This document shows positions 4,601-53,463 of a DNA stretch of 64,000 bases, piece after piece. The position numbers were made by a program, and so were the translations under genes. How positions within the stretch are numbered: position 1 is the stretch's first letter; each line of letters opens with the position of its first letter. Source of the DNA: a virus (Duplodnaviria; Heunggongvirae; Uroviricota; Caudoviricetes); IMG/VR virus record IMGVR_UViG_3300012075_000001, positions 15,804 through 79,803 of that record, one strand, 5' to 3'. The notes beneath the pieces are model-generated. The model was not told the origin of the DNA. It did no database searches and worked only from the letters and a program-made list of their open reading frames with translations.

Positions 4601-5098
4601 TGCGATTTGAAAGGTAAAAAGCATCCAGTCATGCGTTGTGGTAACAAAGTTAAGTTTATGGTCGTCACAGATTGTCCAAATGTTGATGAGGACAAGCAAG
4701 ATAAGCTTATGGTAGGTGATGTCTCAACGTATTTGAAGCAAGCAATCAGAGACGCTGGACTAAATCCAAACGACGGTTACTACACTACGATGGTGAAGGC
4801 GCGTAAGTCAGATAAATTCCTTTCTAACTCACAAATTAATAATTGTAGTAAGTACTTGGAAGAAGAGATTAATCTTGTTAAGCCAAGCATTATTGTTGCG
4901 CTAGGCTCTAGTGTGGCCAAGAAGTTTTTGCCTAGTGTTAAGGGCGGCATTTCAGAGTTAAATGCGACCGCTGTTTATGACACTAACCTTGACGCAACTA
5001 TTGTCTGTGGCATTAGTCCTGCACAACTACCCTTTGACCCTTCAAAACTACCAGACCTTACTTTAGCCTTCGAAAAAGTAGCAGAAGTATTAAGTTGA
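1637..5098 (+). CDS. dnaE: DNA polymerase III alpha subunit (DnaE-like) with C-terminal degenerate family-4 UDG-like domain
   Basis: N-terminal PHP-like region and polymerase core (GPGRGS..G.LVAYL, MDLLGL, YRPGPMD, GYGFNKSH). The C-terminal ~170 aa align to family-4 UDG (KFMVVTDCPNVDEDKQ...VGD vs LMIVGEAPGEEEDKQ...VGRAG; LVKPSIIVALGS vs LVRPRVIVALGA). Confidence 0.85.
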   Translation: MNINHALSVQSDFSIGQSMLQVDHIIEKAKELGYQSVAVVDDMSVHALIQFTYKAEKEGIKPITGVRVRVYDDPTYRRPSRTSQEIPKENPWFICKVFAKTEVGFKGLLRLLTEANTPERFYYNPRSCLKDLLELEDVIVTTGDMFGMFSHPNYEKIARQLKSTFGDDFYAELCPINTPLFDKMNKRAIELVSTMGYKPLVTYPFRYSDNADANTMDVMSAIATNTQLDASFRSRQYVKEFAFVGPNVIIDRTKAAIARGVKFNRTMLDPKAVTAIWSTGIKNCDEIVQKCQYKFEKQSISLPKLADDEFKKLCDLCVAGWKKRFSKPVLGYLPTKQQLDTDYKDRLGYELRTLKNMGFESYFLMVEDLVTWAKNNGVIVGPGRGSVGGSLVAYLIGITDVDPIRFGLIFERFINPERLDLPDADLDFASSRRHKVVEYLIDKYGKEYVAGISNYSTLASASALRDVGRLSGLTPLELTASKFVLKDHGQTMSLEESAKAVPELDKFKKAHPEIWKHAVKLAGTMKSFGQHAAGIVVAGEPIVNRAVLERRSEGTVVNWDKRVVEDCGLVKMDLLGLSTLDTLNIARDYIKERHGIYLNYLEIPLDDAKTLQAFANGNTTGVFQFESGGMKQLLKDIAKGGSMTFDDISAATALYRPGPMDSGLLDDYVATRQGMRSVSYDHPNMIDALKDTLGVIIYQEQVMKVSVDFAGFTNAEADKLRKAMGKKNVDEMNKMRQKFIDGAVAKSGVEPGEAGRIFDKIEAFAGYGFNKSHSVEYSIISVWCAYVRVHYPAEYFAASLSIVDEDKLKGLVKDARECGIEVLPPDINLSSDRYTILDNHNILAPFNAVKGVSETTARAIVKLREKNRDMKIVKYKRNEEKTPVYGYDDDAPIKGRFDSLFEFQEAAAQPKTKVNSKVVESLNAIGALASVEPSQLPARHIDRRKAQMDLLPGIVIDTVKADRVADLSENHLKSRIIMVAQEYKQCDGCDLKGKKHPVMRCGNKVKFMVVTDCPNVDEDKQDKLMVGDVSTYLKQAIRDAGLNPNDGYYTTMVKARKSDKFLSNSQINNCSKYLEEEINLVKPSIIVALGSSVAKKFLPSVKGGISELNATAVYDTNLDATIVCGISPAQLPFDPSKLPDLTLAFEKVAEVLS

Positions 5099-32779: not shown

Positions 32780-33309
32780 TTATTCGTGGTTTTGATACAG
32801 AGACTACAGGTTTAGAACAAGCTGAAGGTCATCGCATCATTGAAGTTGCGATTTTGTCTTATGACTCCAATACCCGTCAGCTCGTTGATAAATATGTGCA
32901 GCGCATAGATCCAGAGCGCTCAATCGACCCTAAAGCACAAGCGGTACATGGCATTGATTATAGCCAGCTTATCGGTTGCCCTAAATGGGAACAGGTTGCG
33001 CCCCAAGTTCATCATTTGCTAAGTACTAGCGATTTAGTAATTGCGCATAACATTGCCTTCGATATGCCCTTTACACAGGCTGAACTTCAGCGCGTTGGAT
33101 TACGTTTACCTCCCGTACAGCAGCTTTGTACGATGGATAAAGGTCGTTGGGCTACCTTTGATGGAAAATCACCGAAATTGGGTGAATTATGCTTTGCGCT
33201 TGATGTGGATTATGACCCTAAAGCTGCCCATGCTGCGGACTATGACGTTGATGTCATGATGCAATGTTTCTTTGCAGGCGTTGATCGCGGTTTTTATAGC
33301 ATCGCTTAA
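32776..33309 (+). CDS. DnaQ-like 3'-5' proofreading exonuclease (epsilon-like)
   Basis: Exo I FDTETTG, Exo II VIAHNIAFDMPF, Exo III HAADYDVDVM. Confidence 0.8.
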   Translation: MIIRGFDTETTGLEQAEGHRIIEVAILSYDSNTRQLVDKYVQRIDPERSIDPKAQAVHGIDYSQLIGCPKWEQVAPQVHHLLSTSDLVIAHNIAFDMPFTQAELQRVGLRLPPVQQLCTMDKGRWATFDGKSPKLGELCFALDVDYDPKAAHAADYDVDVMMQCFFAGVDRGFYSIA

Positions 33310-33390
33310 TTATCGCCAATAGCCATAAGTTAAATTTCAAGTTATTTAGGATTCGTTGTAATATAAGTCCAAGTACTTGAAATTTAACAT

Positions 33391-33738
33391 GTGATTATGG
33401 CACTTAAAGATAATATTAGAAGCCTTGTAGGCGAACAGGAATTTAATAACGTTCTACTGGAAGTAGAAGAAAACTTAACGGTAGAAACTAAGAACTTCAA
33501 CAACACCAAGAAGATCTCAAATGTTTGTTTGGTCGCTGGGGTTATTTGTTTGTTTATTCCTGCGCTTTGGATTATTGCAGCAATCTTATTGGTAATTGGT
33601 TTGGCTACGCTTAAACTAAAAACAGATTCCAAGAAGAAGGTCGATATCTTCAGTGAAGTTAAATATTTTTTGACCGAAGATGTTGAAAGCACTGAGGAAA
33701 ATTCCGAACGTTACAAGTACTTAATTAACCAATTGTAA
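33391..33738 (+). CDS. membrane protein
   Basis: Central double-TM hydrophobic stretch. Confidence 0.4.
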   Translation: MIMALKDNIRSLVGEQEFNNVLLEVEENLTVETKNFNNTKKISNVCLVAGVICLFIPALWIIAAILLVIGLATLKLKTDSKKKVDIFSEVKYFLTEDVESTEENSERYKYLINQL

Positions 33739-33926
33739 CTTGACCATATAGGCCCATAAGGTTATATTTGCCCTATGAGTTGTGAAACTCGCATTATCTT
33801 GTTTGTTTGTTTCGAGCCTATCGAAAGATAGGAAAACAATGAGATAACTTAGTTAAGTTGGGAAAGGCAATTGGAGAAATCTAATTGCCTTTTTCTTTAG
33901 CGGCTAAGCAAATAATAGGACTAAAA

Positions 33927-34178
33927 ATGGATAATCATGATTCTGAATCCCTTCGCATGACGCCTGAAGAGCTAAAACAGGCGGGTGAAATACTCTATGG
34001 CGCTCAGTGGCAAACAGAATTGGCCCGAGCAATTGATGTGGATCCGTGCAGAGTTAGACAATGGTTAACTGGCGAGCGCCTTATTCCAACAAGTTTGCGC
34101 AGTGAAATGATTCTACTCCTGAAGGAAAAGAGTAGAAAATCGGTTGAATATGCAGATTATTTAGATCAGCAGTTTTGA
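33927..34178 (+). CDS. small HTH DNA-binding protein
   Basis: ELARAIDVDPCRVRQWLTGER resembles an HTH. Confidence 0.4.
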   Translation: MDNHDSESLRMTPEELKQAGEILYGAQWQTELARAIDVDPCRVRQWLTGERLIPTSLRSEMILLLKEKSRKSVEYADYLDQQF

Positions 34179-34266
34179 TGGTTCCAATCTGGCAAACAAC
34201 CCCCTCGCGTTTAATATCCAACAAAAAAAATATCTAATAGATTGAATTTGTTAAGTCTTAGAGAAA

Positions 34267-34980
34267 ATGAATATTTTTATTTTGAACGATCAAAGCGTGA
34301 AAGATGTAAAAAATACACATGTCGCGCTTAAAGGGAAAAAATTAATTGCACGTGGACAGTTTTCAGGTGTCTACGAAAGCGGTAATTCAGATACGGTTTT
34401 AAAATTAAGTATTGATGCTATGGGCTACGAGTCCATATTCGGTTCAAACGCTTTGTCGCGTGAAAGTAATCATTTTACACAGCCTATCCGGGACTTTGGA
34501 AAAGTGGGTGAATTTGTTGTCGGTAAGAACATTAGTCAGACCGCAATTACTCAACCAAAAATGATGCCGGTACCAATGTTTTTATATGAAGTTGAACGTC
34601 TCGAAAAATTGCCAGTTAAGGGCGCAAACCGTTCGTTGGTCAATAGAATTTGCAAAAAGCTACGTATCCTTAATGGGTGTAGCTTTATCGATGACCGTCA
34701 CGAGCGAAACGTAACTTGCTTGATGGATTTAGCCGTTGATGAAAATTTGAAAGACCACCCGTCACTCGGTCTGAGCTTTCTTCAAATGGCTAATTTTTTG
34801 AAAGCAAATGCCGACGCTTTTCCTGACTTACATACGGGCAACTTTATGCAGAGAAAAGACGGTACTTTAGTAATTTCAGATCCAGTCGGTTCAACGAGCA
34901 TTTTTGAGTGCTGTAATACCTTCAAGCCTATCTCTTATGATGCTCCCATCATCATAAATAAAGAGCTAAGTTGCGCATAA
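34267..34980 (+). CDS. protein-kinase-like / APH-family phosphotransferase fold protein
   Basis: FPDLHTGNFMQRKDGTLVISDPVG resembles the APH/ChoK catalytic loop HGDLHPGNVL...VIDW. Confidence 0.35.
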   Translation: MNIFILNDQSVKDVKNTHVALKGKKLIARGQFSGVYESGNSDTVLKLSIDAMGYESIFGSNALSRESNHFTQPIRDFGKVGEFVVGKNISQTAITQPKMMPVPMFLYEVERLEKLPVKGANRSLVNRICKKLRILNGCSFIDDRHERNVTCLMDLAVDENLKDHPSLGLSFLQMANFLKANADAFPDLHTGNFMQRKDGTLVISDPVGSTSIFECCNTFKPISYDAPIIINKELSCA

Positions 34981-35102
34981 ATAAATGATTATTTATTGCA
35001 CAAGGCAACCTTTGCAGCTCGCCATCAAAATCTATTCTTTGTCCAACGGCGGTTAGTCATAATTCACTCATCGAAACAAACAACGTAACGAATGAGGTAA
35101 TT

Positions 35103-36041
35103 ATGACAGCTCAAGCAAATATTCAAGATGAAGTGCTTTTAGAGCAACTTTTTGATGATAGCAGCGACTTAACCGACCTAATGAAAGAACTTGATGGTCA
35201 AGAGGCTGCCCCTTTAAACGCAAGTGAAGAAGATGCACTCTCGCTTGAAGATCTCGAATTAGATGCAGCTTTAGTTGAAGAAGTAGCAGCTCAAGCTGAG
35301 CCAGTAACCGAAGAAGTGAAAGCTGAATCGACCGACTTACTCGACGGTTTGATAGATGAGGCTGATATCGACGCGGCTGCATTAGACCTGTCTGCTGCGG
35401 TTGCAGAAGAAGCGCCAGCTGAAGAGGTTAAAGTCGAAAAGAAAGCTAAGTCCAAAAAGACTAGCGCCAAAGAAACAGAAGCAGCGAAAGCGCAAGAGAA
35501 GCAGCAAGATGCAGCGCCTTCAACTTATCGCACAACATATCAAAACAGCAAAGTATCTGCTGTGTTGTTGTCGCGACTAGGCGAGAACGCGCATGACCAC
35601 CTTTTGCTTGAAGTTGATGACGTTGATTTACTTGAAAAAGATCCAGAAGCTTTGAAAGCTAAACAACAAGAGTTGTTAAACATACTCAATGCACGTCCGG
35701 GTAGTGGTTCATCTGTCACAACACAAAAGAAAGTAGCTGAAAAAATAGTGCAGCTCTTCACATGGTTGAAGAATGGCGGTGAATTGAACGTTGTTATGCA
35801 TCGAACTTTTGGCGTTCTTTTGAAAGATGGTTACATCACAACGAAGAAAGCGGGCAACTTGTATTCGAACTTGCTTGCAAAGCCTTACTCTCCTGGTACA
35901 GCAAGTGCGCAAAGCGGGCAAATGATGCAAATGTTGCCTATGTTAAAAATTACCATGAAAGACGAACAGGGTCGCTTAGTGCCTAACCCGAACTCACTCA
36001 TTCTTATGAAGATCAAGAGTGAATTATTTCCAGAGCTTTAA
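35103..36041 (+). CDS. hypothetical protein, acidic N-terminal motif plus A/E-rich linker
   Basis: N-terminus and 5' nucleotide sequence paralogous to gene 5183-6280. Confidence 0.5.
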   Translation: MTAQANIQDEVLLEQLFDDSSDLTDLMKELDGQEAAPLNASEEDALSLEDLELDAALVEEVAAQAEPVTEEVKAESTDLLDGLIDEADIDAAALDLSAAVAEEAPAEEVKVEKKAKSKKTSAKETEAAKAQEKQQDAAPSTYRTTYQNSKVSAVLLSRLGENAHDHLLLEVDDVDLLEKDPEALKAKQQELLNILNARPGSGSSVTTQKKVAEKIVQLFTWLKNGGELNVVMHRTFGVLLKDGYITTKKAGNLYSNLLAKPYSPGTASAQSGQMMQMLPMLKITMKDEQGRLVPNPNSLILMKIKSELFPEL

Positions 36042-42848: not shown

Positions 42849-43314
42849 AGTTGAGTTTGAAATTCCTGAACTTGAATGGGTAAACGTGCCTACTAATTAC
42901 AATACGCCTATCGGTGAGTTTGCAGATATACACCATGTTAACGCCATTCAAGATCTGATTGAGTATCTTCAGCGCCTTAATGAGATTGAGTGGATTATTA
43001 ATGCAAACCATCAACACGTCCGCCATCCTTTCTGTCGTGAATTGGTTCGTGACCGCCTTCGCTTTGTGCCAGAGAGTCAAATTTGGTGGGTGGGTGAACA
43101 ATTAAGTCACTTCTTAATGAGTTTCAGAAAGTATTCAGGACTTAAATTTTCAGAATACAAATTTACCTATCAAGTCCTTTCGAACGGTAAAAAGGTTCAA
43201 ATTAAAGGCTATACCCAACTTTTTAACACTGAGGAAGAAGCAATACGTCATCGCGTTCACGTTTGTACATCTGGAAAAGACTTTGATTTTGAAATTTTGG
43301 AGAACGAAGCATGA
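42838..43314 (+). CDS. hypothetical protein
   Basis: SD GGGAGA before ATG 42838. Confidence 0.4.
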   Translation: MKVRVEFEIPELEWVNVPTNYNTPIGEFADIHHVNAIQDLIEYLQRLNEIEWIINANHQHVRHPFCRELVRDRLRFVPESQIWWVGEQLSHFLMSFRKYSGLKFSEYKFTYQVLSNGKKVQIKGYTQLFNTEEEAIRHRVHVCTSGKDFDFEILENEA

Positions 43315-43652
43315 GTATTGCAAAAGTTCGATATTGGACAACAAGCGAAATTAATAAGCTAATCGTCCTGCACTCAAAAGATACGCCAATTGCAGAAATT
43401 GCGAAGGAGTTAAACAGAACTGTAGGCACCATCAATGCATCAATTGCACGGCTGCGTAAGAGTGGCAAAATGCCTCCAGCAAAAACAGCACTGGAACATA
43501 TCGGTAGTGTAGATAAAGCCAAAAAGCTTATTGCTGAGGCTGAATCACGCGGATTTAAAACGATACCGATCAAAACGGACAATGGCTATTCACAAACGTA
43601 TATCCATCGTTTACGCACTTTGATTCAAAAAGCGGAGCAAAGAGCGGCATGA
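43311..43652 (+). CDS. HTH protein (sigma region-4-like)
   Basis: TPIAEIAKELNRTVGTINASIARLRK. Confidence 0.4.
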   Translation: MSIAKVRYWTTSEINKLIVLHSKDTPIAEIAKELNRTVGTINASIARLRKSGKMPPAKTALEHIGSVDKAKKLIAEAESRGFKTIPIKTDNGYSQTYIHRLRTLIQKAEQRAA

Positions 43653-44079: not shown

Positions 44080-44232
44080 AGCCACTGTTAATAATCTTGG
44101 CTTGTGTTGCGTTACTTGGATGCACAGCCAGCTCAATCAGCACCAATGTAAATATCAGCGTTTGCATGCAATGCGTGCAATATGGCTAAAACACAAGGCA
44201 ACACTCGTTGCCTTTGCACCCCCTATTGCTAG

Positions 44233-44607
44233 TTGAGAAGATGCTTACATCAACAAAACAGGTTTAAAGTCATGCAAATAGAAGTATTTACAAATGAAGT
44301 TGAAGCAGCTGATTATGCTGAAAATATATCTAAACAATGTAGCGCTCTTCATGATGGAGATATGATGCTCCTATCGCAAGGAAAAGTGGTTCTTGAAGCC
44401 GTTGTTTGCGAAGTTGAAGAAGGTATCAAAGCGCTAATATACGAATTTCAAAGCGCTGATATTTGCAACCTTTCAGAGTTAGACGGTTACGATTATTTTG
44501 AATCTCAAGATTTTGTAAAATTGACTGTATTTGATAACGCGAAAGAAGCAAAAGAGTTCATGTTGGCTCGCGCAACTGAATCAATGATGCTAAACAGTCT
44601 CATATAA
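44233..44607 (+). CDS. hypothetical protein
   Basis: Terminator follows. Confidence 0.4.
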   Translation: MRRCLHQQNRFKVMQIEVFTNEVEAADYAENISKQCSALHDGDMMLLSQGKVVLEAVVCEVEEGIKALIYEFQSADICNLSELDGYDYFESQDFVKLTVFDNAKEAKEFMLARATESMMLNSLI

Positions 44608-44612
44608 AACCT

Positions 44613-44638
44613 CAAACCGTCTTGATGACGGTTTTTTA
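44613..44638 (+). terminator. rho-independent terminator
   Basis: AACCGTC-TTGATG-GACGGTTTTTT. Confidence 0.7.
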
Positions 44639-44644
44639 ATAATA

Positions 44645-44730
44645 ATAACAACTCCTAAGCCATTGATAGTAAGTCCAAAATATTATTGAGAAAATCTTTC
44701 TATCGAAACAAGCAACATAGAGTTATACAA
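44645..44730 (+). repeat. conserved ~70-nt leader element, copy A
   Basis: CCTAAGCCA...ATTGAGAAAAT..CT(C/T)TATCGAAACAAGCAACATAGAG immediately before the ATG. Confidence 0.5.
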
Positions 44731-45309
44731 ATGCAAGTTACATTACATCGCACAGCTAAATTCTCTACAGACGCAATTGTTACAGGATTTGAAAAACCGT
44801 TTATATTGTCTTTATACGCAGATCACTTGCGGTCCATGATGTCTCTGAATAGTGAGAGAAGCAGCGCTTTCATTCAAGAAAACGTAACGCCCAACTCAAA
44901 AGCTCCAGTTAGAGATGACGAACCTTTCCATTATTGTCACAAAGCTCGTGAGCTAACTGAAGAAGAAATAGAAGAGCTTTTCTCAAATCCTCGTGATTAT
45001 GAGTTCTATGATGACTCATATTCTTATTACAGCACTATAGACTTGTCGCATTTATCACATGAGCAGCACAAAACCATAAATTGTGCTATCTCAGCGATAA
45101 ATGATGCTACATGCGGATTTAATGACTATTACGATCGAGAAGAAAGCGAAGACAAAGATGGTTATATTCATGATTATGACAATGCAGAACGTTTAATTGT
45201 CGATCTTGATGCGTGTACAGTCCAATACATGAACGGTTATAAAACTAATTCTGATCATCATCCTGTAGTTTCGTATAAATACGCATTAATTCCATATACA
45301 ACAGAATAA
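44731..45309 (+). CDS. hypothetical protein, paralog of 48358-48849
   Basis: Shared block YYSTIDLSHL(S/T)HEQHK and M(Q/K)VT(L/A)HR start. Conserved leader upstream. Confidence 0.45.
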   Translation: MQVTLHRTAKFSTDAIVTGFEKPFILSLYADHLRSMMSLNSERSSAFIQENVTPNSKAPVRDDEPFHYCHKARELTEEEIEELFSNPRDYEFYDDSYSYYSTIDLSHLSHEQHKTINCAISAINDATCGFNDYYDREESEDKDGYIHDYDNAERLIVDLDACTVQYMNGYKTNSDHHPVVSYKYALIPYTTE

Positions 45310-45319
45310 AGAATTAATT

Positions 45320-45347
45320 CAACCGCTCCATTATGAGCGGTTTTTCT
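45320..45347 (+). terminator. rho-independent terminator
   Basis: ACCGCTC-CATTAT-GAGCGGTTTTT. Confidence 0.7.
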
Positions 45348-45354
45348 TTATAAA

Positions 45355-45437
45355 TAACAACGCCTAAGCCACAAATTGTTTGTCCAAATACCGATTGAGA
45401 AAATAACTCTATCGAAACAAACAAAGCGATTTTTAAA
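45355..45437 (+). repeat. conserved leader element, copy B (partial 3' half)
   Basis: ACGCCTAAGCCA...GATTGAGAAAATAACTCTATCGAAACAA. Confidence 0.45.
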
Positions 45438-45980
45438 ATGACTAACGAAACTAATGATCAAGTGACTATAGAGCAATTTTTAGCGAAGTTTTCAAACCCT
45501 GATAACAACAAACGTTTTCGCTTAGAAGGCTTCAGTTTTACGCATCAACACGGTTTTAACCTTTACTTTGACGAATACGACGACTTTAAAGACGAGTTAG
45601 GCGATGTAGAAATCGAGTTCTGGCAGCTGGAAGACACTTGGGCCAATGAAGAGATTAAAGTTTCATCTTTCAGCACTCTTGAAACGATAGTTGAGTTTTT
45701 AGTAAGCCTTAATCTTGATGAAGTTAAAGAAGTTGGCGTATACGCAGCTTTAGTCGAAGGTAACTATGCTGATTGGTCAAATGTAAAAGAGTGGCACGAA
45801 GAGCATTATGTTTGTGACTATGAAAACGACGATGACTTTGGACGCTACTTAATTGATGAATTATCCGCTTTAGATATACCTGAAGACATACAAGGCTATT
45901 TTGATTACGAACGCTACGGGCGCGATGCTCTATTAAGCGATTACTGCAAAGCTGAAGGAAAAGTTTACCGAAACTGCTAA
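45438..45980 (+). CDS. acidic hypothetical protein
   Basis: Partial copy of the conserved leader upstream. Terminator downstream. Confidence 0.45.
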   Translation: MTNETNDQVTIEQFLAKFSNPDNNKRFRLEGFSFTHQHGFNLYFDEYDDFKDELGDVEIEFWQLEDTWANEEIKVSSFSTLETIVEFLVSLNLDEVKEVGVYAALVEGNYADWSNVKEWHEEHYVCDYENDDDFGRYLIDELSALDIPEDIQGYFDYERYGRDALLSDYCKAEGKVYRNC

Positions 45981-45985
45981 ACAAC

Positions 45986-46016
45986 AAAGGCGCCGTAATA
46001 GCGCCTTTTCTTTTGT
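45986..46016 (+). terminator. rho-independent terminator
   Basis: AAGGCGC-CGTAATA-GCGCCTTTTCTTTT. Confidence 0.7.
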
Positions 46017-46283
46017 CTAATCACTTCATGGCTTTAAGCATCAAATAAATGAGCCCTACCGCTCCAAGAACAATAAATGCGGTCAACATGCGCCGTACTC
46101 AATTCATATCACATGCAATCATTATAACCATCGCAATAGGAAACACTATAGGCAACATAAGCGCCTCCACTTCTGTGTCCTACCCGGTATTTATACAATG
46201 CTCATATCAAGACAACGAAGCGCTGTAGTAATACAAATCGTGTGTATTGATAGATAAAAACGGTCTCACAAGCCACCTTTAAG

Positions 46284-46322
46284 CCAGCTCTATTCCCCCT
46301 ATTCGAGAGCTGGCTCTTTTTA
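46284..46322 (+). terminator. terminator-like hairpin inside noncoding region
   Basis: GCCAGCTCT-(13 nt)-AGAGCTGGC-TCTTTTTA. Confidence 0.45.
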
Positions 46323-47164
46323 TGCAAAATCAGCAAAAACAGGCAGTTAGAGCAATATTATTGTATATCATTGATTTATAGGAAATTTTACACAAATAAA
46401 CTGACTTGTAACTAACTCATAACTTACCCAACCGCCCTTATTATTGTCAGATAAGTAAACACACCCAATTTAACTCTTCATAATCACTCATAACAGCGCG
46501 CTAGAGACGCTTTAAACCTAAAGATGGTGAATCACTCATAACATACCTAAAACGCTCTCTAAAGCAATTCTATGCGCAATTACTAAATTAGGTTTTTGGC
46601 TATATCCGCGGCTAAACGTTATAACAAACAATCAGGCTTTCTTAAAGGCACAATTCATAATATCCGTATTATCGTAATATCATATTCCCATACGCCCATA
46701 CATACATACGGTAATATCGTAATACGCTAACAAACATATAGATCAAACAACGCATTTTTTAAAACGTATTCTAATAAAGAGAACTTACTATAAAACAATC
46801 TAACTACTCTACTGCTAACCCATAGAACAGCTAATCACATAACACACGCGCAATTTCATAACGCTATCTAAATAATCAAACTACCAATAAACCTTACTTC
46901 TCTATACGCTACTAAAACAAATCAATTAACACTGACAAAAACAATAACAATGACACGGACAATGATAAGTAAGCGCTGAACACTATATACACCAAGGATA
47001 GAGAGAATAACTCATATAACAATGATTCATCATACACGGATACATAGAGCCATAGGAAGTATGCATATAGGAGTTTATAAAGGAGTGATACATAGAGAGG
47101 GGAGTTGTGCAGTGTGCAGGAAGCGACCGAAGGGAGCGGTGGATTCAATCGATTAAAAAATTGT

Positions 47165-47245
47165 CTCCGCCAAGTTTCTTACACTTGCAAAGTCAGTAAC
47201 TACTGACTAAACTTTCGAACGAAAGTTTTCACCGCTTGGCGGTGG
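47165..47245 (+). promoter_or_regulatory. palindromic motif nested inside a long inverted repeat, no -10
   Basis: CCGCCAAG...AGTCAGTAACTACTGACT...AAACTTTCGAACGAAAGTTT...CTTGGCGG. Confidence 0.4.
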
Positions 47246-47751
47246 ACCCATTTTGCTTTTGATAGGGGTGCGTTTTACTTAGGGTCGACGTTTACCAACT
47301 ACGGAATGTTAGCATTTCGATGTGGCGTAGATTAAGTAATTGCCTTCTCCCTTCCTTCTCGTTTAATTGTCTTTTTAGGCTACGGGGGGGAAGGGGGGGC
47401 ATTTTCACTTCTTCTAACGTTTTCACATCGGAATGGTGTAATACTTTAAAAGCTTATAAGAACAATGAAAAATCCCAATGAAATTCCTGAACAAACTAAT
47501 TTTCCAAAAATCACATATACACACTGGCAAATGGCACAAAAATTTCGTCGCCGAGGCAAATCCACAAAGCCAACAATTCAATTATCCACGGCGCACCCAA
47601 GGCATGTTCCACGCAAAAGTTGGCGAATCCTTGGGTGAAACATGCGGCTAATCGGAAGAGGCGATTGATGAATATCACTACGCCATGCGGTGTATGTCCA
47701 GCTGCTAAATATCACAATGCACATATCGAAAACGTATAGAGAGAAACGGCA

Positions 47752-47973
47752 ATGAGTGAAGATGTTAAAAGTATAGATGTGGAGAACTTCCACGTTGAAA
47801 TCAATGCCAAGACTCAGCGCGGCTGGTTTGAGCATGACGAAGAAGAAATTGAAGGCGGTCTGTGGTTCCAAGACAATGTGCTTGTTGACTATGACGGCGT
47901 ATTTGAACTACCAGTGGCGGTGACACATGCCATTCACCAATTGGGCTTTCGTGTGGAGTGTGAAGATATATGA
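47752..47973 (+). CDS. hypothetical small protein
   Basis: ORF after the long noncoding region. Confidence 0.35.
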   Translation: MSEDVKSIDVENFHVEINAKTQRGWFEHDEEEIEGGLWFQDNVLVDYDGVFELPVAVTHAIHQLGFRVECEDI

Positions 47974-48140
47974 AGGAATATCAAATCAAGGTAATACGCA
48001 TGGAGGTTATAACTGTGCGGGCCATTAGCAAAGAAGCCGCATTTGACTACGCCGAAGATCCAAAGAATTTTCCACCAAACTCGGAGCTGTTCGACGCCCA
48101 CCTCATAAGTGAGGAAGAGATAAAGGATAAGCCGCTGTAA
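47970..48140 (+). CDS. hypothetical small protein (56 aa), not in supplied ORF track
   Basis: ATGA-coupled to the previous gene. Terminator follows. Confidence 0.3.
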   Translation: MKEYQIKVIRMEVITVRAISKEAAFDYAEDPKNFPPNSELFDAHLISEEEIKDKPL

Positions 48141-48283
48141 TAGGCGGTTTTCTTTTTGGCCACATTCTTGCCTAGGCCAATCCAATTTTCACTCAGGCAC
48201 AGGCCAAGGCATTTTTCATGAGGCTAATCCTCGGCACATCCACGGCGCGGCCAACACACAGGAGACATGCACACAACGCCTAA

Positions 48284-48357
48284 GCCACGTGTTACTTATC
48301 CACTAACGCATTGAGAAAATAGCTCTATCGAAACAAGCAACACATAGAGTTAAGCAA
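48284..48357 (+). repeat. conserved leader element, copy C
   Basis: ACGCCTAAGCCA...ATTGAGAAAATAGCTCTATCGAAACAAGCAACACATAGAG with CTCTAT/ATAGAG inverted repeat. Confidence 0.5.
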
Positions 48358-48849
48358 ATGAAAGTTACAGCACACCGTATAGCACCAATGGGTTATGATG
48401 CTTTGATCATAGGTTTTGATCGCCCTTGTATAATATCGCTTTGCAAAGACACCGTTTCGCCTCTGTGTGGTTCGAGCTTAAATAACGACAGAAGCGTGTT
48501 TCGATATAGCTCATTTACTGAAGAGGATGAGCAAAACCCTAACTTGAGCGCCAAAGACTATGCGTATGTTGATGGTTTAGGTTTTAGTGATTTTTACCGT
48601 TATTACAGCACTATAGACTTGTCACACTTGACGCATGAACAGCATAAAATCATGTATACAGCGGTTGCAGAAATTAACGATGTAACCGACTTCTGCAACT
48701 ACACTCCAATGCCAGAAGAGTGTGAGCAGGAGCGTGAAGATTGTCGCAAGCTCATGAAGCGCACAGACAACATGGTAATTAATTTGAAGAAGCTCCACAT
48801 AAAATATTCAGACGGTGAAAAAGCAACTTACGACGACTTACACAACTAA
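48358..48849 (+). CDS. hypothetical protein, paralog of 44731-45309
   Basis: Shared YYSTIDLSHLTHEQHK block. Conserved leader upstream. Confidence 0.45.
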   Translation: MKVTAHRIAPMGYDALIIGFDRPCIISLCKDTVSPLCGSSLNNDRSVFRYSSFTEEDEQNPNLSAKDYAYVDGLGFSDFYRYYSTIDLSHLTHEQHKIMYTAVAEINDVTDFCNYTPMPEECEQEREDCRKLMKRTDNMVINLKKLHIKYSDGEKATYDDLHN

Positions 48850-48944: not shown

Positions 48945-48974
48945 GCACCGCTCTAAGATGAGCGGTTTTTTATT
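48945..48974 (+). terminator. rho-independent terminator
   Basis: ACCGCTC-TAAGAT-GAGCGGTTTTTT. Confidence 0.7.
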
Positions 48975-49274
48975 ATCGTACGCAACGTGCCATGGACAAT
49001 CCAAAGCAGATCCACGCTGCATCCAAGAGTGAAAAACGGCGTTGCCTCGGCTGAACACTAGAATTTTCCTAAAACACCCGCACGCTCGCATAAGGAACTG
49101 CCGCTCTCCACAGTGCCGCCGTGGAAGAGCCACACGGCAATCCAATTTCCGACAGGATTTGCCTTGGCGTTAACCATCCAAAAACAGCGCCAACCCTTGT
49201 GCCATAAGGTTTTCATAGATTTTGAGTGAATTTTCGTTTTTAATTTTGAACAAGTGATTAATTAGCGCTCAAAA

Positions 49275-49308
49275 TTGACTTGCAACAAGTCAATTAAGGT
49301 GTAATTAT
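49275..49308 (+). promoter_or_regulatory. palindromic operator TTGACTTGCAACAAGTCAA overlapping sigma70-like promoter
   Basis: 19-nt perfect palindrome. Candidate -35 TTGCAA, 16 nt, -10 TAATTA. Confidence 0.45.
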
Positions 49309-49357
49309 TCGCTCAGTCGGTTAGCTCGAAACAAACCGACAAATACAACTTAACTAT

Positions 49358-49699
49358 ATGAAGGTTTTTATCATGACAACTCAAAACATGCGTAAATTAG
49401 CTATAACTAAACTTACTAATGAATTAAGCAACGATAGCGAATTGTTGAATACTGTATTAGAAGGTAAACATGCATACATGAAGTTAATACAACAACGTGC
49501 AGAAGTTCACGCACAACTATGCATAGAACGTCAAAATAAGCGTATCGAGTATCTAACAGCGATAACAAAGCACAAAAAGGTTTTAAAGCTGTCTAAAAGC
49601 ACATTTATGAATGATTTTATCAACAAATACATGTTTAACTTCATGCAGTACCGTAGCATTGCGTTAAACGTGCATAACATGCGGTTAACAGTGATATAA
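49358..49699 (+). CDS. hypothetical protein
   Basis: Downstream of the palindromic operator/promoter at 49275. Confidence 0.4.
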   Translation: MKVFIMTTQNMRKLAITKLTNELSNDSELLNTVLEGKHAYMKLIQQRAEVHAQLCIERQNKRIEYLTAITKHKKVLKLSKSTFMNDFINKYMFNFMQYRSIALNVHNMRLTVI

Positions 49700-49824
49700 G
49701 CACATAATGTAATACATCGTACCATTTTTAATAAAACGCTCTAAAAAGGGCGTTTTATTGCATTTAAAGCACATGTTTACTTATTTGATTATTTTTTACT
49801 CAAATAAACAAATTATTTAATAAA

Positions 49825-49857
49825 TTGACTTGTAACAAGTTAGTTTTGTGCTATTAT
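49825..49857 (+). promoter_or_regulatory. second copy of operator/promoter (TTGACTTGTAACAAGTTAG ... TATTAT)
   Basis: Same architecture; -10 TATTAT 16 nt after TTGTAA. Confidence 0.45.
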
Positions 49858-49933
49858 GAACTCATACCGAAACAACTTACTCGAAACAAGTTAAACGGTA
49901 TCTAAAACAACTTAACTAATGTGAGATTTTACT

Positions 49934-50635
49934 ATGAATACTAAAGCAAACCTTGACCTTTTAGCTGCTGACACAACTATAGAAAACGCTGCTACTGCTA
50001 AGAAAGAAGTTAAAACAAACTTCAAAGCACGCGCTAAGAACATACAAAAGACTATTCTTGCTAACCTTGATATACGCAAGGTGCATCAACCGCTATCACG
50101 TGACATTGTGAGCGAAATAAACTTTTTCTCTACTGATGCAGGTTTAGCAACTATAGAGCAGTGTTTAACTAAAGGTATCGAGCTAAAAGCATTCGCTGAT
50201 ATTATCGGTACGTACAGCGAAGACATAAAAGGTAAAGACGGTTACTTAGCAAGCAAAGCGATTGTTAAGTGTCGCAAGCTCATGCAAGCAATCGCACAAA
50301 ACAACTGCATGAAGATCGACCCGTACACACGTTCTATCTTGCGTAACTTAATCGAGTTCAAGCAATTAAGACACTTTGAATTAGAACGCTGCTTGTGTGC
50401 GACCATTGAGAATAAAGACGGGCTAGAGAACGTTAAGCGCGTTAGACAGTATCACAGTACGGGCATGAATACCGCACCGACTCAAACATGTTCAACTAAA
50501 GCAATGTTGCAAATGTTCAATATATGCGACCTTGTGAAAGGTGAGAAACACGGTTTAGTTAGCTTTACAAGTGAAGAAGTGACAGCGTTAATTGTTGAGA
50601 TGTTTAAGACATTCACTATCGAGCAAAAACGTTAA
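49934..50635 (+). CDS. hypothetical protein
   Basis: Downstream of the second operator/promoter copy at 49825. Confidence 0.45.
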   Translation: MNTKANLDLLAADTTIENAATAKKEVKTNFKARAKNIQKTILANLDIRKVHQPLSRDIVSEINFFSTDAGLATIEQCLTKGIELKAFADIIGTYSEDIKGKDGYLASKAIVKCRKLMQAIAQNNCMKIDPYTRSILRNLIEFKQLRHFELERCLCATIENKDGLENVKRVRQYHSTGMNTAPTQTCSTKAMLQMFNICDLVKGEKHGLVSFTSEEVTALIVEMFKTFTIEQKR

Positions 50636-51747: not shown

Positions 51748-53463
51748 TTATGCTGCCTTCCTGGTGAATCCTAGATCTTCAAAATTGAACTCATTCACAA
51801 TGTTTTCGCCGAACCCCTTCGTATGCTCCACAATCTCACGACGCTGCATGGCATGATTCTTTGTATGTGAGTTCCAATGGTCTGTGAAGTCAACAATGAA
51901 CGCCACGTTTGGACCAGTCTTCTTCGCACGCAAACCACGACCGATCCGCTGACGAAGGGCAATTTCAGCTTTACCACCACCCCCAAGAATAATCATACCG
52001 ACCGCAGGGACGTCGACACCGACATCCAAAATGGTTGTACCGATCAACGCATCAATAGTACCGCTGGACAGCTTATTCAGCGCTAATTTGCGCTCTGCTT
52101 GATTGTTTTCACCTTTGATGAACTCAGCACGTAACCCGTATTGAGTCAAAAGCTCAGTTAAATGGTCGCCGTGTGATGTGTGCTGCACGAGAATCATCGA
52201 CGTCAAACCATACGCTTTTGCTCGAATGATCTCGCTCACAATCGCTAAGTTGCGCTCTTCATTGTCAGTCACACCAAGTCGATATGCTGATTGCCAACCA
52301 GTGCTGCGGAGTAAGTGCGTCGGCTTCTTGCGAAGTTCAATATATTTGAAATAAGGCTTCGCCAATACACCGCGTTGAATCAACATTTCCTCAGACACTT
52401 TAATTGCGATAGGGCCAGAACATGCCATTAGGCGCATGTTTGACTCTTCGCTCTCACGCATAAACGGTGTACCCGTTAATGCCAAGCGATAGTGAGCGTT
52501 TTTGCAGTGGCGCATGATTTCGTAGTAAGAATTGCCTGAAGCTTCGTGCGCCTCTTCAAGAATCACAAACTCAAACATAGAAAGAAGTTTGATTGTTTTT
52601 AGGCGCTCAATATTCTTTTCATCAAATTTGGCCTTCGCCTTATTTGTCATGTCTTGAGCGTTCGCTTTTAACCACACTTGCTGCTTGGTGATCAAATCAT
52701 TTGTGGCAGTTGTAATCTCAGCTGTGCTTTTTTTGTCTTTAGTTAGCTTTGTTTTTAAAGCCACAATTTCTTTTTTGAACTTCTCTTGAGCCGCTTCAAA
52801 TAAAACATTGAACTCTCCTTGAATCGTGGTGACTTCAAGCTTGCTAATAAACGTTTGCACTGTTCCGACTGACATCATTTTGATTGTCGTTTGCCCTTGT
52901 GCGTTGATGTGGCCAAAGTGACCGTCGCCAAAAACTGAACAGGGGATACCCATATCTTTTTCGAATGCATCTTTCATTTGATACATCAGGATTGAGCGGG
53001 TGGTAAGAAAAAGGGTAGGTCGATTAATGCGAGCGAAGCAAAGACGGGCAATACGAGACTTACCGCCACCTGTAGCAACTTGCGCAATAATTTGGCCATG
53101 TTTGACCAGTTTGTCCATTACCTCAGGCTGATAGTCATACTTAGGGTCATATCCAAAAGCATCGACCTGCGGACGCTCAGGGCCTAATGGAGCGGGGAAG
53201 GGCTTGCGAACGATATTAACTTGATAGCCTTCACGGCGAAGGTTAGCGGCAACAAAATGAAGGAAGCCCGCTGGAAAAGAGCAATTTTTATAAACAAAAA
53301 AAGATGAACGACCATCCCACTTATGTTGTTTAAACAAGGCCATCGTTTCAGCGCCGTCAACTTGGTACGATAGCGCCTTTTGGACAATTAATTTTACTTT
53401 GGTGCTGGGTTGATTCAGCACGGCATTTACCGCGTTGGCGGCAATCGTAACTACCTCTGACAT
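51748..53463 (-). CDS. SF2 DNA helicase (UvsW-like)
   Basis: Walker A VATGGGKS, DEAH-like LEEAH, helicase C motif QRIGRGLR. Confidence 0.7.
   Translation of the reverse strand: MSEVVTIAANAVNAVLNQPSTKVKLIVQKALSYQVDGAETMALFKQHKWDGRSSFFVYKNCSFPAGFLHFVAANLRREGYQVNIVRKPFPAPLGPERPQVDAFGYDPKYDYQPEVMDKLVKHGQIIAQVATGGGKSRIARLCFARINRPTLFLTTRSILMYQMKDAFEKDMGIPCSVFGDGHFGHINAQGQTTIKMMSVGTVQTFISKLEVTTIQGEFNVLFEAAQEKFKKEIVALKTKLTKDKKSTAEITTATNDLITKQQVWLKANAQDMTNKAKAKFDEKNIERLKTIKLLSMFEFVILEEAHEASGNSYYEIMRHCKNAHYRLALTGTPFMRESEESNMRLMACSGPIAIKVSEEMLIQRGVLAKPYFKYIELRKKPTHLLRSTGWQSAYRLGVTDNEERNLAIVSEIIRAKAYGLTSMILVQHTSHGDHLTELLTQYGLRAEFIKGENNQAERKLALNKLSSGTIDALIGTTILDVGVDVPAVGMIILGGGGKAEIALRQRIGRGLRAKKTGPNVAFIVDFTDHWNSHTKNHAMQRREIVEHTKGFGENIVNEFNFEDLGFTRKAA

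Follow-up and report, generated by a model that had tools for sequence, protein, structure and literature searches.

The DNA analysed here, referred to as the window, is a 64,000-nucleotide stretch of a Caudoviricetes genome that belongs to an Acinetobacter phage-plasmid of roughly 110 kb. The window has genes for a DnaE-type polymerase, SbcCD and ParB, and shares synteny with Nickievirus-like siphoviruses and with plasmids of A. baumannii. Clinical isolates of A. baumannii commonly carry phage-plasmids, whose accessory region includes anti-defence genes such as ardA. The repeats described below lie in the plastic accessory region of this element, among small genes and terminators (at 44614, 45321, 45986, 48129 and 48947; Table 1). 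One of these genes is assigned to ArdA (Pfam score 47.3 bits, cut-off 27), and the other downstream genes matched no Pfam family. The genes at 44731–45309 and 48358–48849 are indeed paralogues, as originally suggested (33% identity, E=2e-23, both phrog_8815); the fold of the latter's protein found no match among solved structures.

Table 1. Genes, terminators and repeat heads in the accessory region of the window (start sites are predicted).
Feature	Position	Strand	Description
Strongest copy in window	35056–35107	+	-10 CATAAT 35058–35063; predicted +1 35070
Hairpin of strongest copy	35056–35107	+	GTCATAATT..ACTCAT (35056–35071) pairs with ATGAG..AATTATGAC (35092–35107)
Degenerate copy	44237–44271	+	TG and -10 GAAGAT 44237–44242; predicted +1 44249 (ATCAACAAAAC); gene 44272–44607 next
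Terminator-like hairpin and T-run	44614–44634	+	AAACCGTCTTGATGACGGTTT then TTTT; closes gene 44272–44607, just 5' of copy 1; given as 44634–44614 by the hairpin scan
Copy 1 head	44645–44730	+	Block A 44652–44662; TAGTAA in -35 position 44667–44672; TCC 44674–44676; TG 44687–44688; -10 GAAAAT 44690–44695
Copy 1 inverted-repeat arms	44698–44703, 44717–44722	+	TTCTAT; ATAGAG
Copy 1 leader	44702–44730	+	Predicted +1, A 44702
Accessory gene, phrog_8815 paralogue	44731–45309	+	192 aa
Terminator	45321–45342	+	AACCGCTCCATTATGAGCGGTT and T-run; 3' boundary of swapped cassette
Copy 2 head	45355–45437	+	Block A 45361–45371; TTGTTT in -35 position 45376–45381; TCC 45383–45385; TG and -10 GAAAAT 45399–45404; predicted +1 45411
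ArdA-type anti-restriction gene	45438–45980	+	180 aa; terminator 45986–46008 after
Further copy	47713–47751	+	-10 CACAAT 47713–47718; predicted +1 47725 (ATCGAAAA); leader to ATG 47752
Genes behind 47725 start	47752–47973, 47970–48140	+	Predicted to be driven by 47713 copy
Terminator	48129–48150	+	Closes 47752–48140 unit
Copy 3 head	48274–48357	+	Block A 48277–48287; TTACTT in -35 position 48292–48297; TCC 48299–48301; TG 48312–48313; -10 GAAAAT 48315–48320; predicted +1 48327
Copy 3 inverted repeat	48320–48328, 48344–48352	+	TAGCTCTAT / ATAGAGTTA; 9 bp, one G.U
Accessory gene, phrog_8815	48358–48849	+	163 aa; terminator 48947–48966 after
Long-leader variant 1	49274–49357	+	Dyad ATTGACTTGCAACAAGTCAAT 49274–49294 over -35 TTGCAA 49280–49285; -10 AATTAT 49303–49308; predicted +1 49315; gene 49358–49699
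Variant 1 5'-terminal hairpin	49316–49340	+	UCGAAAC in loop
Long-leader variant 2	49824–49933	+	Dyad over -35 TTGTAA 49830–49835; TG and -10 TATTAT 49852–49857; predicted +1 49864; gene 49934–50635
Variant 2 5'-terminal hairpin	49864–49901	+	UCGAAAC in loop

The original prediction described a leader repeated three times, and the copies at 44645–44730, 45355–45437 and 48284–48357 are present where it placed them. With one mismatch allowed, their 27-nt core, ATTGAGAAAATNNCTCTATCGAAACAA, is found at 44685, 45394 and 48310 (and in none of 100 shuffles), and the aligned copies have a per-column identity of 78%; copy 1 reads CTCCTAAGCCA rather than CGCCTAAGCCA as first reported. The count of three proved too low. 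At least six short-leader and at least two long-leader copies are present in the window, among them blocks at 35058–35077 and 47713–47732 and a degenerate one (44237–44259) marked by a weak nhmmer hit (44195–44268), and the suggested search of related genomes returned about 30 more copies from five related Acinetobacter phage-plasmid loci. The further short repeats reported nearby, GGCNAATCC and ATCCACGGCGC, do exist (exact GGCNAATCC at 47555, 47622, 48175 and 48222, and at 49155 on the minus strand) as parts of three homologous stretches upstream of three promoters, but the motif with one mismatch allowed is not clearly enriched across the window (46 against 34.8 expected).

The suggestion of a shared promoter finds support in the family as a whole. 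Among 37 copies from six loci, A-11, A-8 and T-7 occur in 37 of 37 (of these three, A-11 and T-7 but not A-8 served to select the copies), T-34 in 35, and TCC at -28 to -26 in 33–34. In information content this profile matches a sigma-70 -10 element, and ATCGAAAC follows the -10 hexamer at a fixed distance of six bases throughout. The family form of the hexamer is nAnAAT; the three flagged copies have GAAAAT with an extended-10 TG. The short-leader class has a poor -35 hexamer and a short 5' UTR (23–33 nt) that is A/C-rich and unstructured, with a weak Shine-Dalgarno sequence (GAG/GGT). Elsewhere the -10/N6/ATCGAAAC block stands 16–17 bp behind a canonical -35 hexamer, namely in the long-leader copies (TTGCAT, TTGCAG, TTGTCA, TTGCAA), unrelated viral contigs (TTGACA, 17 bp), the Klebsiella phage mfs (six copies) and the Pseudomonas phage Torfinnsbu. 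This recurrence in several settings fixes the -10 element and the predicted start position. Judged by consensus geometry, which also gives the predicted start, the heads read as sigma-70-type promoters. A simple promoter scan did not pick up the three flagged heads, and the poor -35 of the short-leader class, together with the conserved TCC, may point to activator dependence.

Conservation of this kind could also mark a DNA operator, in which ATCGAAAC..AACAAC (+1 to +16) and/or T-34 and TCC bind a phage-plasmid repressor or activator that co-regulates all the cassettes, as the C1 operators do in P1. The sequence that stays invariant, and equally far from the -10, in all 37 copies, the poor -35 with its TCC, the long leaders with two CGAAAC copies about 14 nt apart and the gene for an HTH protein just upstream (43311–43652) are all consistent with this possibility. 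However, the same +1 sequence occurs in unrelated phages and contigs, so that an operator would need one regulator everywhere, and in the long leaders the motif sits in the apical loops of covarying RNA hairpins. We therefore consider an operator unlikely as the explanation of the repeats, and it is compatible with, not exclusive of, their reading as promoter-bearing cassette heads.

The second part of the original prediction was a hairpin conserved in all three copies, and here the picture changes. A repeat of the CTCTAT/ATAGAG type is found in two of the three: copy 2 (45355–45437) lacks the 3' arm and has no inverted repeat, copy 1 pairs TTCTAT with ATAGAG, one pair being U.G, at about -1 to -2 kcal/mol, and the sole 9-bp stem, in copy 3, reaches -6.9 kcal/mol (z=-0.6), no better than shuffles. 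The 3' arm does lie on the ribosome-binding region, as had been noted. The proposal of a structured 5' UTR, translational operator or riboregulator is not supported in its original form, as the 5' arm falls at -4 to +2 relative to the predicted promoter's start (in stronger copies as far as -14) and the cassette's own transcript would therefore lack it. Folded from +1, the leaders are predicted to be unstructured (-0.1 to -0.7 kcal/mol), and Rfam covariance models run over the whole window gave no match at gathering scores.

The wider family suggests what such a repeat may do. About 12 of 33 short leaders have stems of 7–11 bp that pair positions -8 to +3 with the Shine-Dalgarno region, in compensating variants (CTCTAT/ATAGAG, CTTTATC/GGTAAAG and TTGCTTTATC/GGTAAAGCAG); about 15 of the 33 show no pairing at all. 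When arms were swapped among 21 non-orthologous leaders, a set from which obvious orthologues were removed, short of full phylogenetic correction, own arms paired at a mean of -4.45 kcal/mol versus -2.95 kcal/mol for swapped arms, an excess that may be inflated by inheritance of whole modules. That difference was reached in 19 of 50,000 permutations, and neighbouring 5' windows gave no excess. The strong examples fold at -19.5, -18.5, -16.5 and -14.5 kcal/mol (z -3.4 to -6.5). Overall, 14 of 34 long forms have most of the Shine-Dalgarno sequence paired, versus 0 of 34 own-start forms, the latter folding at 0 to -3 kcal/mol, and the wobble pairs are G.U on the sense strand. The copy with its predicted start at 35070 is the strongest case in the window. 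The 3' arm of its hairpin includes the Shine-Dalgarno sequence GAGG and the start codon at 35103, its -10 hexamer CATAAT pairs with AUUAUG of the start codon, and the predicted energy is -19.5 kcal/mol (z=-5.8) if the RNA starts upstream versus -3.0 kcal/mol (z=0.1) from +1. From these folding models, we infer that the hairpin probably blocks translation only in RNA that reads in from upstream. Since the hairpins of the three flagged copies are weak or absent, masking may be vestigial there.

We propose, with a probability of roughly 0.65, that each repeat forms the head of a self-contained expression cassette in the accessory region, that the heads serve as cassette-swap points, and that the hairpin masks read-through RNA. 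The observed parts of this model are the repeats with their geometry and conservation profile, the points at which homology breaks, the covariation of the arms and the calculated folding energies. In the proposed order, an upstream terminator or stem-loop would be followed by the promoter, six bases, a start at the A of ATCGAAAC, the 5' UTR and the ATG. With a head that runs from its own promoter to the ATG, each small gene (ArdA, the two phrog_8815 paralogues and the ORFans) would be its own transcription unit, closed by a terminator of the ACCGCTC..GAGCGGTTTTT type. The inverted repeat would straddle the start site, its 5' arm within the promoter (-4 to +2 in copies 1 and 3, elsewhere up to -14 to +3 with the -10 hexamer included) and its 3' arm over the Shine-Dalgarno sequence and, in strong copies, the AUG. 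Pairing would then be possible only in read-through RNA. RNA from the cassette's own promoter would lack the 5' arm and present an open ribosome-binding site, and translation would thus be tied to that promoter.

A structured 5' UTR proper would place the start upstream of the stem, with a protein, small RNA or ligand opening or closing the ribosome-binding site. The inverted repeat covaries and covers the Shine-Dalgarno sequence and AUG, and its wobble pairs fit sense-strand RNA, all as such a leader would predict. We nevertheless find this improbable, because the 5' arm overlaps or directly follows the invariant A-11/A-8/T-7 hexamer, no alternative promoter is visible upstream, and the same block follows a canonical -35 at 16–17 bp in other copies and phages. 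In addition, long-leader hairpins begin at the predicted +1 (+1/+2 in 9 of 10, on stems of four different sequences), stems are missing from copy 2 and some 15 further leaders, and Rfam offers no match.

The reading as cassette heads also makes sense from the pattern of homology between relatives, which supports the idea of a recombination module for cassette exchange. Two independent replacements were found in which homology ends in the leader and resumes in the downstream terminator. In the comparison with one relative (L141), homology extends across the copy-1 promoter as far as about +9, breaks off, and returns in the terminator at 45321–45342, where homology to a second relative (L009) resumes too; against L009, it is also lost at +1 to +8 of the 47725 copy and returns at the 48144 T-run. 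Relatives have different genes behind the same heads. Breaks in the leader with a return in the terminator make the heads cassette boundaries, and as repeated sequences the heads and terminators would also offer crossover points for cassette gain, loss and replacement. Homologous recombination is the mechanism that we infer for the exchange.

Simple residue of gene duplication, in which a gene was copied with its upstream region and the repeat is nothing beyond an ordinary promoter, would fit copies 1 and 3, which precede paralogues and whose similarity runs into the first codons, but it is already contradicted by these findings: copy 2 precedes the unrelated ArdA gene, the same head stands before many unrelated genes at six loci, and it persists where identity between orthologous proteins is just 38–60%. 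Equally remote is a promoter read by an RNA polymerase or sigma factor of the phage itself, or one of the N4 hairpin type, which the long conserved block across the start site (as in T7-type promoters) and the inverted repeat at the promoter might evoke, since the A-11/T-7 signature and TTGACA-type -35 of sister copies point to sigma-70 and no polymerase gene was found among the ORFs scanned. Hairpin promoters of the N4 type have a 5–7-bp stem and a 3-nt loop upstream of the start; we rejected this class on the loops of 8–17 nt seen here and a stem that spans the start site.

The closest known counterparts of the proposed cassette heads are the promoter-early stem-loops (PeSLs) of T4-type phages (Arbiol et al., 2010, PMC2839356; Comeau et al., 2014, PMC4122927). 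Each is a repeated intergenic module of ~100 bp that combines a sigma-70-like promoter, a stem-loop terminator or attenuator, a Shine-Dalgarno sequence and a start codon. Heads and PeSLs alike are found mostly in hyperplastic regions 5' of ORFans, and it is to these modules that differences between related genomes map. In three relatives (L138, L140 and L160), the stem-loop ACCGCTAGT..ACTAGCGGT lies between the -35 and -10, the commonest PeSL layout, and relatives have a hairpin at -39 to -14; Klebsiella phage mfs has a GC hairpin between -35 and -10, and the terminators of the window stand separately, 20–170 nt upstream. In contrast to the PeSLs, the heads described here belong to a DnaE-encoding, siphovirus-like Acinetobacter phage-plasmid, have a poor -35, in many copies add a repeat across the start site that would mask the ribosome-binding site, and share the invariant transcribed start ATCGAAAC, of which the PeSL papers make no mention. 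Their promoter and terminator activity is predicted from sequence. We rejected strict membership because the genome is not that of a T4-type myovirus, and regard the heads as a PeSL analogue.

The masking has its own precedent in the T4 genes e (lysozyme), soc, 49 and I-TevI, whose ribosome-binding sites are sequestered in long transcripts and whose promoters lie inside the region encoding the 5' strand (PMC3014915, section 29). As in these genes, the Shine-Dalgarno sequence and/or AUG would pair with a segment upstream of the proximal promoter's start, and transcripts from that promoter, without the 5' strand, are predicted to be open. Whereas the T4 device separates early from late expression of a few genes through late promoters (TATAAATA), the predicted masking here belongs to a sigma-70 cassette head that is repeated and exchangeable; this pairing occurs in only about 40% of copies and is weak or absent in the three flagged ones.

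The transcribed start recalls yet another system. T7 A1 is a strong early lytic-phage promoter with a defined initial sequence, its RNA starting AUCGA. Like T7 A1-type early promoters, which are strong host-polymerase promoters before early genes, the heads have an A at +1 followed by UCGA, but here about 16–20 nt (ATCGAAACRAACAACGGAG) are common to unrelated phages; our literature search found no leader shared across unrelated phages in this way. Canonical promoters of Klebsiella, Pseudomonas and Pectobacterium phages and of viral metagenome contigs have the ATCGAAACRAACAACGGAG start at +1 as well, and the contigs (42–60% GC) have no proteins in common with the window. The cassette-head model gives no reason for the invariance of ATCGAAAC itself. 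Speculatively, 5'-AUCGAAAC(A/G)AACAAC(GGAG) might be a horizontally mobile "early-gene expression tag" of unrelated gammaproteobacterial phages, kept invariant through recognition by a conserved host component and joined in the Acinetobacter lineage by a promoter-embedded anti-RBS arm that insulates each exchangeable cassette from upstream transcription. Carriers of AUCGAAAC are Acinetobacter phage-plasmids, a Klebsiella Webervirus, Pseudomonas siphoviruses, a Pectobacterium jumbo phage and uncultured contigs; candidate recognisers would be the ribosome or protein S1, the 5'-end decay machinery, or RNA polymerase at promoter escape.

If the cassette-head model is true, new small genes would arrive expression-ready in these phage-plasmids, slotted in behind one repeat, the promoter-leader head, and ahead of another, the terminator. 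Promoter DNA would serve a second time as an anti-RBS arm, effective only against RNA that comes in from upstream, so that each gene stays dependent on its own promoter. The shared ATCGAAAC start offers a testable lead to a compact, portable and strong promoter-leader, or to a host factor that recognises it. The PeSL idea would reach beyond T4-type phages, and the device of T4 gene e would become a reusable part of mobile cassettes, no longer a curiosity of a few genes.

The repeated element is real, and it heads more genes than the three at which it was noticed. A 27-nt core occurs three times in the window at no more than one mismatch, against none in 100 shuffles, and the three aligned copies (copies 1 to 3, listed in the table) agree in 78% of columns. 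The genes behind copies 1 and 3 were borne out as paralogues by sequence comparison; ArdA lies between them, behind copy 2. The CTCTAT...ATAGAG repeat, said to be conserved, is present in copy 3 and, with one U.G pair, in copy 1, and is missing from copy 2. Folded alone, no leader of the three does better than shuffled sequence. As a whole, the observation was thus confirmed in part. A hairpin with a T-run precedes each copy and another follows each gene, and the three genes therefore appear to be separate transcription units. Copy 3 also shows 83% complementarity, over 23 nt, between its promoter and leader and a stretch inside its own gene, GCGTGTTTCGATATAGCTCATTT (codons VFRYS); this complementarity is only partly kept in the A. 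baumannii relative L009 and is probably chance.

Features of the window and related loci
Feature	Sequence	Position	Remark
Copy 1 leader	window	44645-44730	phrog_8815 paralogue, 44731-45309
Copy 2 leader	window	45355-45437	ArdA
Copy 3 leader	window	48284-48357	phrog_8815 paralogue (gene 3), 48358-48849
Further copies	window	35070; 47725	geometry scan
Degenerate copy	window	44249	geometry scan
Long-leader variants	window	49315; 49864	geometry scan
Strong hairpin	window	35050-35115	-19.5 kcal/mol, z=-5.8
Strong hairpin	L139	4750-4815	-18.5 kcal/mol, z=-6.5
Strong hairpin	L009	8738-8790	-16.5 kcal/mol, z=-5.6
Strong hairpin	L140	4420-4480	-14.5 kcal/mol, z=-3.4
Conserved core	window	47225-47445	inside gene-free stretch 46010-47710
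Conserved core	L009	7868-8088	
Conserved core	L138	5062-5290	
Conserved core	L139	6400-6625	
Conserved core	L140	6325-6555	
Dyad	window	49274-49294	before gene 49358-49699
Dyad	window	49824-49844	before gene 49934-50635
Homologous stretches	window	47540-47660; 48165-48260; 48985-49170	each upstream of a promoter
Copy 3 complementarity	window	48316-48338; 48494-48516	
HTH protein	window	43311-43652	113 aa
Hairpin in gap	window	~33790-33840	minus strand, in gap 33309-34267
DnaE-type polymerase	window	1637-5098	
Helicase	window	51748-53463	minus strand

Judged by its sequence, the window is a phage-plasmid of the pABTJ2-like Acinetobacter group, as plasmid matches and phage synteny together argue. 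The flagged region has matches, at ~84% identity and covering 41% of it, in 27 Acinetobacter baumannii plasmids, which are 105-114 kb long and whose annotation lists ArdA and hypothetical proteins. GenBank phages gave no match to this region, whether searched for near-identity or by protein, its relatives being filed under A. baumannii plasmids, not phages; a 109,760-bp metagenome contig encodes the exact gene-3 protein. By DnaE, the nearest annotated phages are Rhizobium RHEph10-like phages and Pseudomonas Nickievirus (41-43% identity), the latter syntenic with the window around helicase, ParB, terminase and portal. The window also encodes SbcCD, ribonucleotide reductase, large terminase and portal; almost all of its genes lie on the plus strand, and no tRNA genes were found in it. 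More distant relatives were obtained through gene-3 homologues: L141 (85% protein identity), L139 (61%), L138 (53%) and L140 (38%).

These relatives show how large the family of heads (repeated promoter plus leader before a small accessory gene) is. In L009/L137, copies stand before genes different from those of the window, and in L138-L141 the small genes of the region are almost all headed by a -10-like hexamer (CATAAT, TATTAT, TATCAT or CACAAT, with which GAAAAT of the window aligns), six bases, ATCGAAAC(G/A)AACAACG and, 10-15 nt on, ATG. The block pattern of the family is -10/N6/ATCGAAACRAACAAC, and its leader from +1 to +16 reads ATCGAAACAAGCAAC. A 17-base pattern scan of genome contigs returned matches that are almost all chance, as are several in IMG/VR.

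Among 37 copies profiled, A-11, A-8 and T-7 are invariant, A-11 and T-7 having been the only selection criteria. T-34 occurs in 35 of the 37, TCC at -28 to -26 in 33-34, and T-1 in 33; ATCGAAAC comes next. An extended -10 (TG at -15/-14) marks the flagged copies 1 to 3 and the copies most closely related to them. Canonical -35 hexamers (TTGCAT, TTGCAG, TTGTCA, TTGCAA) lie 16-17 bp upstream in the long-leader copies, one of whose promoters was also found by a consensus promoter scan. The head thus reads as a predicted sigma-70 promoter with a fixed start; the -10 profile, the fixed start distance and the canonical -35 in sister copies all support the shared promoter of the original prediction. 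From the predicted +1, a 5'-terminal hairpin begins at +1/+2 in 9/10 long-leader RNAs, with four different stem sequences and (U)CGAAAC in the apical loop; short leaders from +1 are unstructured (-0.1 to -0.7 kcal/mol). TTGAGA was rejected as the -35 of the flagged copies, there being no -10-like sequence 16-18 bp downstream; AAC..TCC was also considered as a sigma-E-like element and dropped for its unfit spacing, and Hfq (ARN)n or Crc AAnAAnAA motifs were found unfit in the leader on inspection by eye.

Several features nearby could bear on regulation. The dyad ATTGACTTG-N3-CAAGTCAAT lies over the -35 of both long-leader promoters (0.15 matches expected by chance) and looks like a repressor operator for the two genes behind it. 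The conserved T-34/TCC positions have a candidate reader in an HTH protein encoded where the cassette array begins; it is conserved in relatives and weakly resembles sigma-70 region 4 and 'D5-like' regulators. Three homologous stretches share GGCNAATCC(A), ATCCACGGCGC and CCAAGGCATTTTTCA, and hold 5/6 exact window matches to GGCNAATCC; they may serve as binding sites or be left over from duplication.

The leader start extends well beyond the Acinetobacter family. IMG/VR contigs with a GC content of 42-60% and no proteins in common with the window contain the exact string TATCGAAACRAACAACG, in many cases with the same GGAGCAAGACGAGATG behind it, at +1 of TTGACA-17-(nAnnnT)-N6 promoters before 55-128-aa ORFans. 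Likewise, ATCGAAAC(A/G)AACAACGGAG stands at +1 of canonical sigma-70 promoters in viral contigs L143, L146, L150-L153 and L158 and in phages CBB (L162), mfs (L163-L165) and Torfinnsbu (L164). BLAST of the 33-nt leader against GenBank phages returned 150 records (86 Klebsiella, those examined being Webervirus; 34 Pseudomonas; 23 Vibrio; plus Pectobacterium CBB), and E. coli genomes gave no match. Klebsiella phage mfs (OP611406.1) has six copies, arranged as TTG(C/T)TAAA, GC hairpin, TATnAT, tacccc, ATCGAAAC, GGAG and ATG, the GC hairpin lying between -35 and -10 in each; Pseudomonas phage Torfinnsbu reads TTGACG-17-CATTAT-N6-ATCGAAACGAACAACGGAG. With these and the contig copies, the -10 and the start are fixed without recourse to the Acinetobacter family. 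Pseudomonas phage nickie, by DnaE the nearest relative with annotation, carries one copy at most, which means that the head does not characterise the clade as a whole. Possible reasons for the invariance of ATCGAAAC, outside the model of the head itself, are 5'-end stability, ribosome recruitment and promoter escape (T7 A1 RNA, too, begins AUCGA). The leader string was not found in the literature searched, and the cross-phage leader is new as far as could be checked. A minus-strand hairpin, CTATC-TTTC-GATAG followed by GC-TCGAAACAAACAAACAAG, stands in a gap among plus-strand genes and may be a leader copy or a small RNA.

The hairpin was at first judged spurious from folding of the flagged leaders, a judgement reversed by the family-wide scan. 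Stems of 7-11 bp form in ~12/33 short leaders, pairing -8..+3 with the stretch that leads up to the ATG, and their arms covary (CTCTAT/ATAGAG, CTTTATC/GGTAAAG, TTGCTTTATC/GGTAAAGCAG). Own arms pair better than swapped ones, at a mean of -4.58 versus -3.36 kcal/mol over all copies (reached in 3/20,000 permutations) and -4.45 versus -2.95 kcal/mol over 21 non-orthologous representatives (19/50,000); the neighbouring 5' windows -19..-9 and +1..+11 have no such excess. The four strong copies in the table are each significant by themselves, and in them the start-codon sequence, AUUAUG or GUUAUG, is paired with the -10 hexamer CAUAAU. Where pairs deviate from Watson-Crick, the sense strand has G.U, which speaks for sense RNA and not for a DNA palindrome. 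Because the 5' arm lies inside the promoter, the hairpin RNA must come from upstream. The Shine-Dalgarno sequence is mostly paired in 14/34 leaders with RNA from -14 and in 0/34 with RNA from +1. The original prediction of a structured UTR, as part of the gene's own mRNA, is not supported, given the position of this arm and the unstructured leaders from +1. We propose that the hairpin would instead mask RNA arriving from upstream of the head, and that own-promoter RNA would lack the 5' arm. The same arrangement, with the ribosome-binding site paired in upstream-started RNA, is described for T4 genes e, soc, 49 and I-TevI (PMC3014915). Among the flagged copies, the mask is weak in copy 3, marginal in copy 1 and missing in copy 2; all three follow a hairpin and T-run, and an inverse relation, across the family, between hairpin strength and the presence of a terminator has counter-examples, among them L138 2720 and 3172. 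The start-straddling hairpin is absent in phages mfs and Torfinnsbu, and Rfam at gathering scores gave no match in the whole window.

The head also marks cassette boundaries. The window and L141 are homologous across the copy-1 promoter as far as ~+9 and again from within the terminator at 45321-45342; the segment between these breakpoints contains a phrog_8815 paralogue in the window and, in L141, another gene, of 125 aa. Against L009, homology spans a 1.7-kb gene-free stretch and the 47725 promoter to +1..+8 and returns at the T-run near 48144, with two small genes in the window replaced by two others. Pairwise comparison thus gives two independent replacements, with breakpoints in the leader and in the downstream terminator, which supports the predicted cassette exchange; the terminators form their own repeat family (ACCGCTC..GAGCGGTTTTT). 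Integron attC-like cassettes were set aside, since the cassettes here bring their own promoters and the scanned proteins include no integrase. Closer is the promoter-early stem-loop (PeSL) of T4-type phages, a repeated promoter and stem-loop module found in hyperplastic regions, before ORFans, at junctions of phage differences (PMC2839356). The window heads show the same picture of repeated module, ORFan and junction, and the stem-loop between -35 and -10 positions in L138, L140 and L160 is the commonest PeSL layout. The heads sit in another phage lineage, however, and are therefore not strict members of the PeSL family; nor do the PeSL papers mention a conserved start, unlike the invariant ATCGAAAC here.

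A core of ~220 nt in the gene-free stretch keeps 70-100% identity in relatives with protein identities of only 40-60%. Its sequence is TTGCTTTyGATAGGGGTGCGkTTTrCTTGGGTCGAsGTTTAsCAA, a pyrimidine tract, GGGGGGGAAGGGGGGGCA and GTTTTCAC, in this order; RNAalifold predicts 55 pairs, of which 12 have changed on both sides, and Rfam on 45950-47780 at E<=1 gave no match. The core may be an unlisted ncRNA, or an origin or packaging site.

Of the interpretations originally offered, promoter and cassette exchange are thus upheld, and a structured UTR on the gene's own transcript is not. From its sequence we infer what the element does: it would work in the manner of a PeSL joined to a T4 gene-e-type mask, in which the ribosome-binding site is paired in long RNA and free in RNA from the proximal promoter. 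The mechanisms are already known; their combination in one exchangeable head is new.
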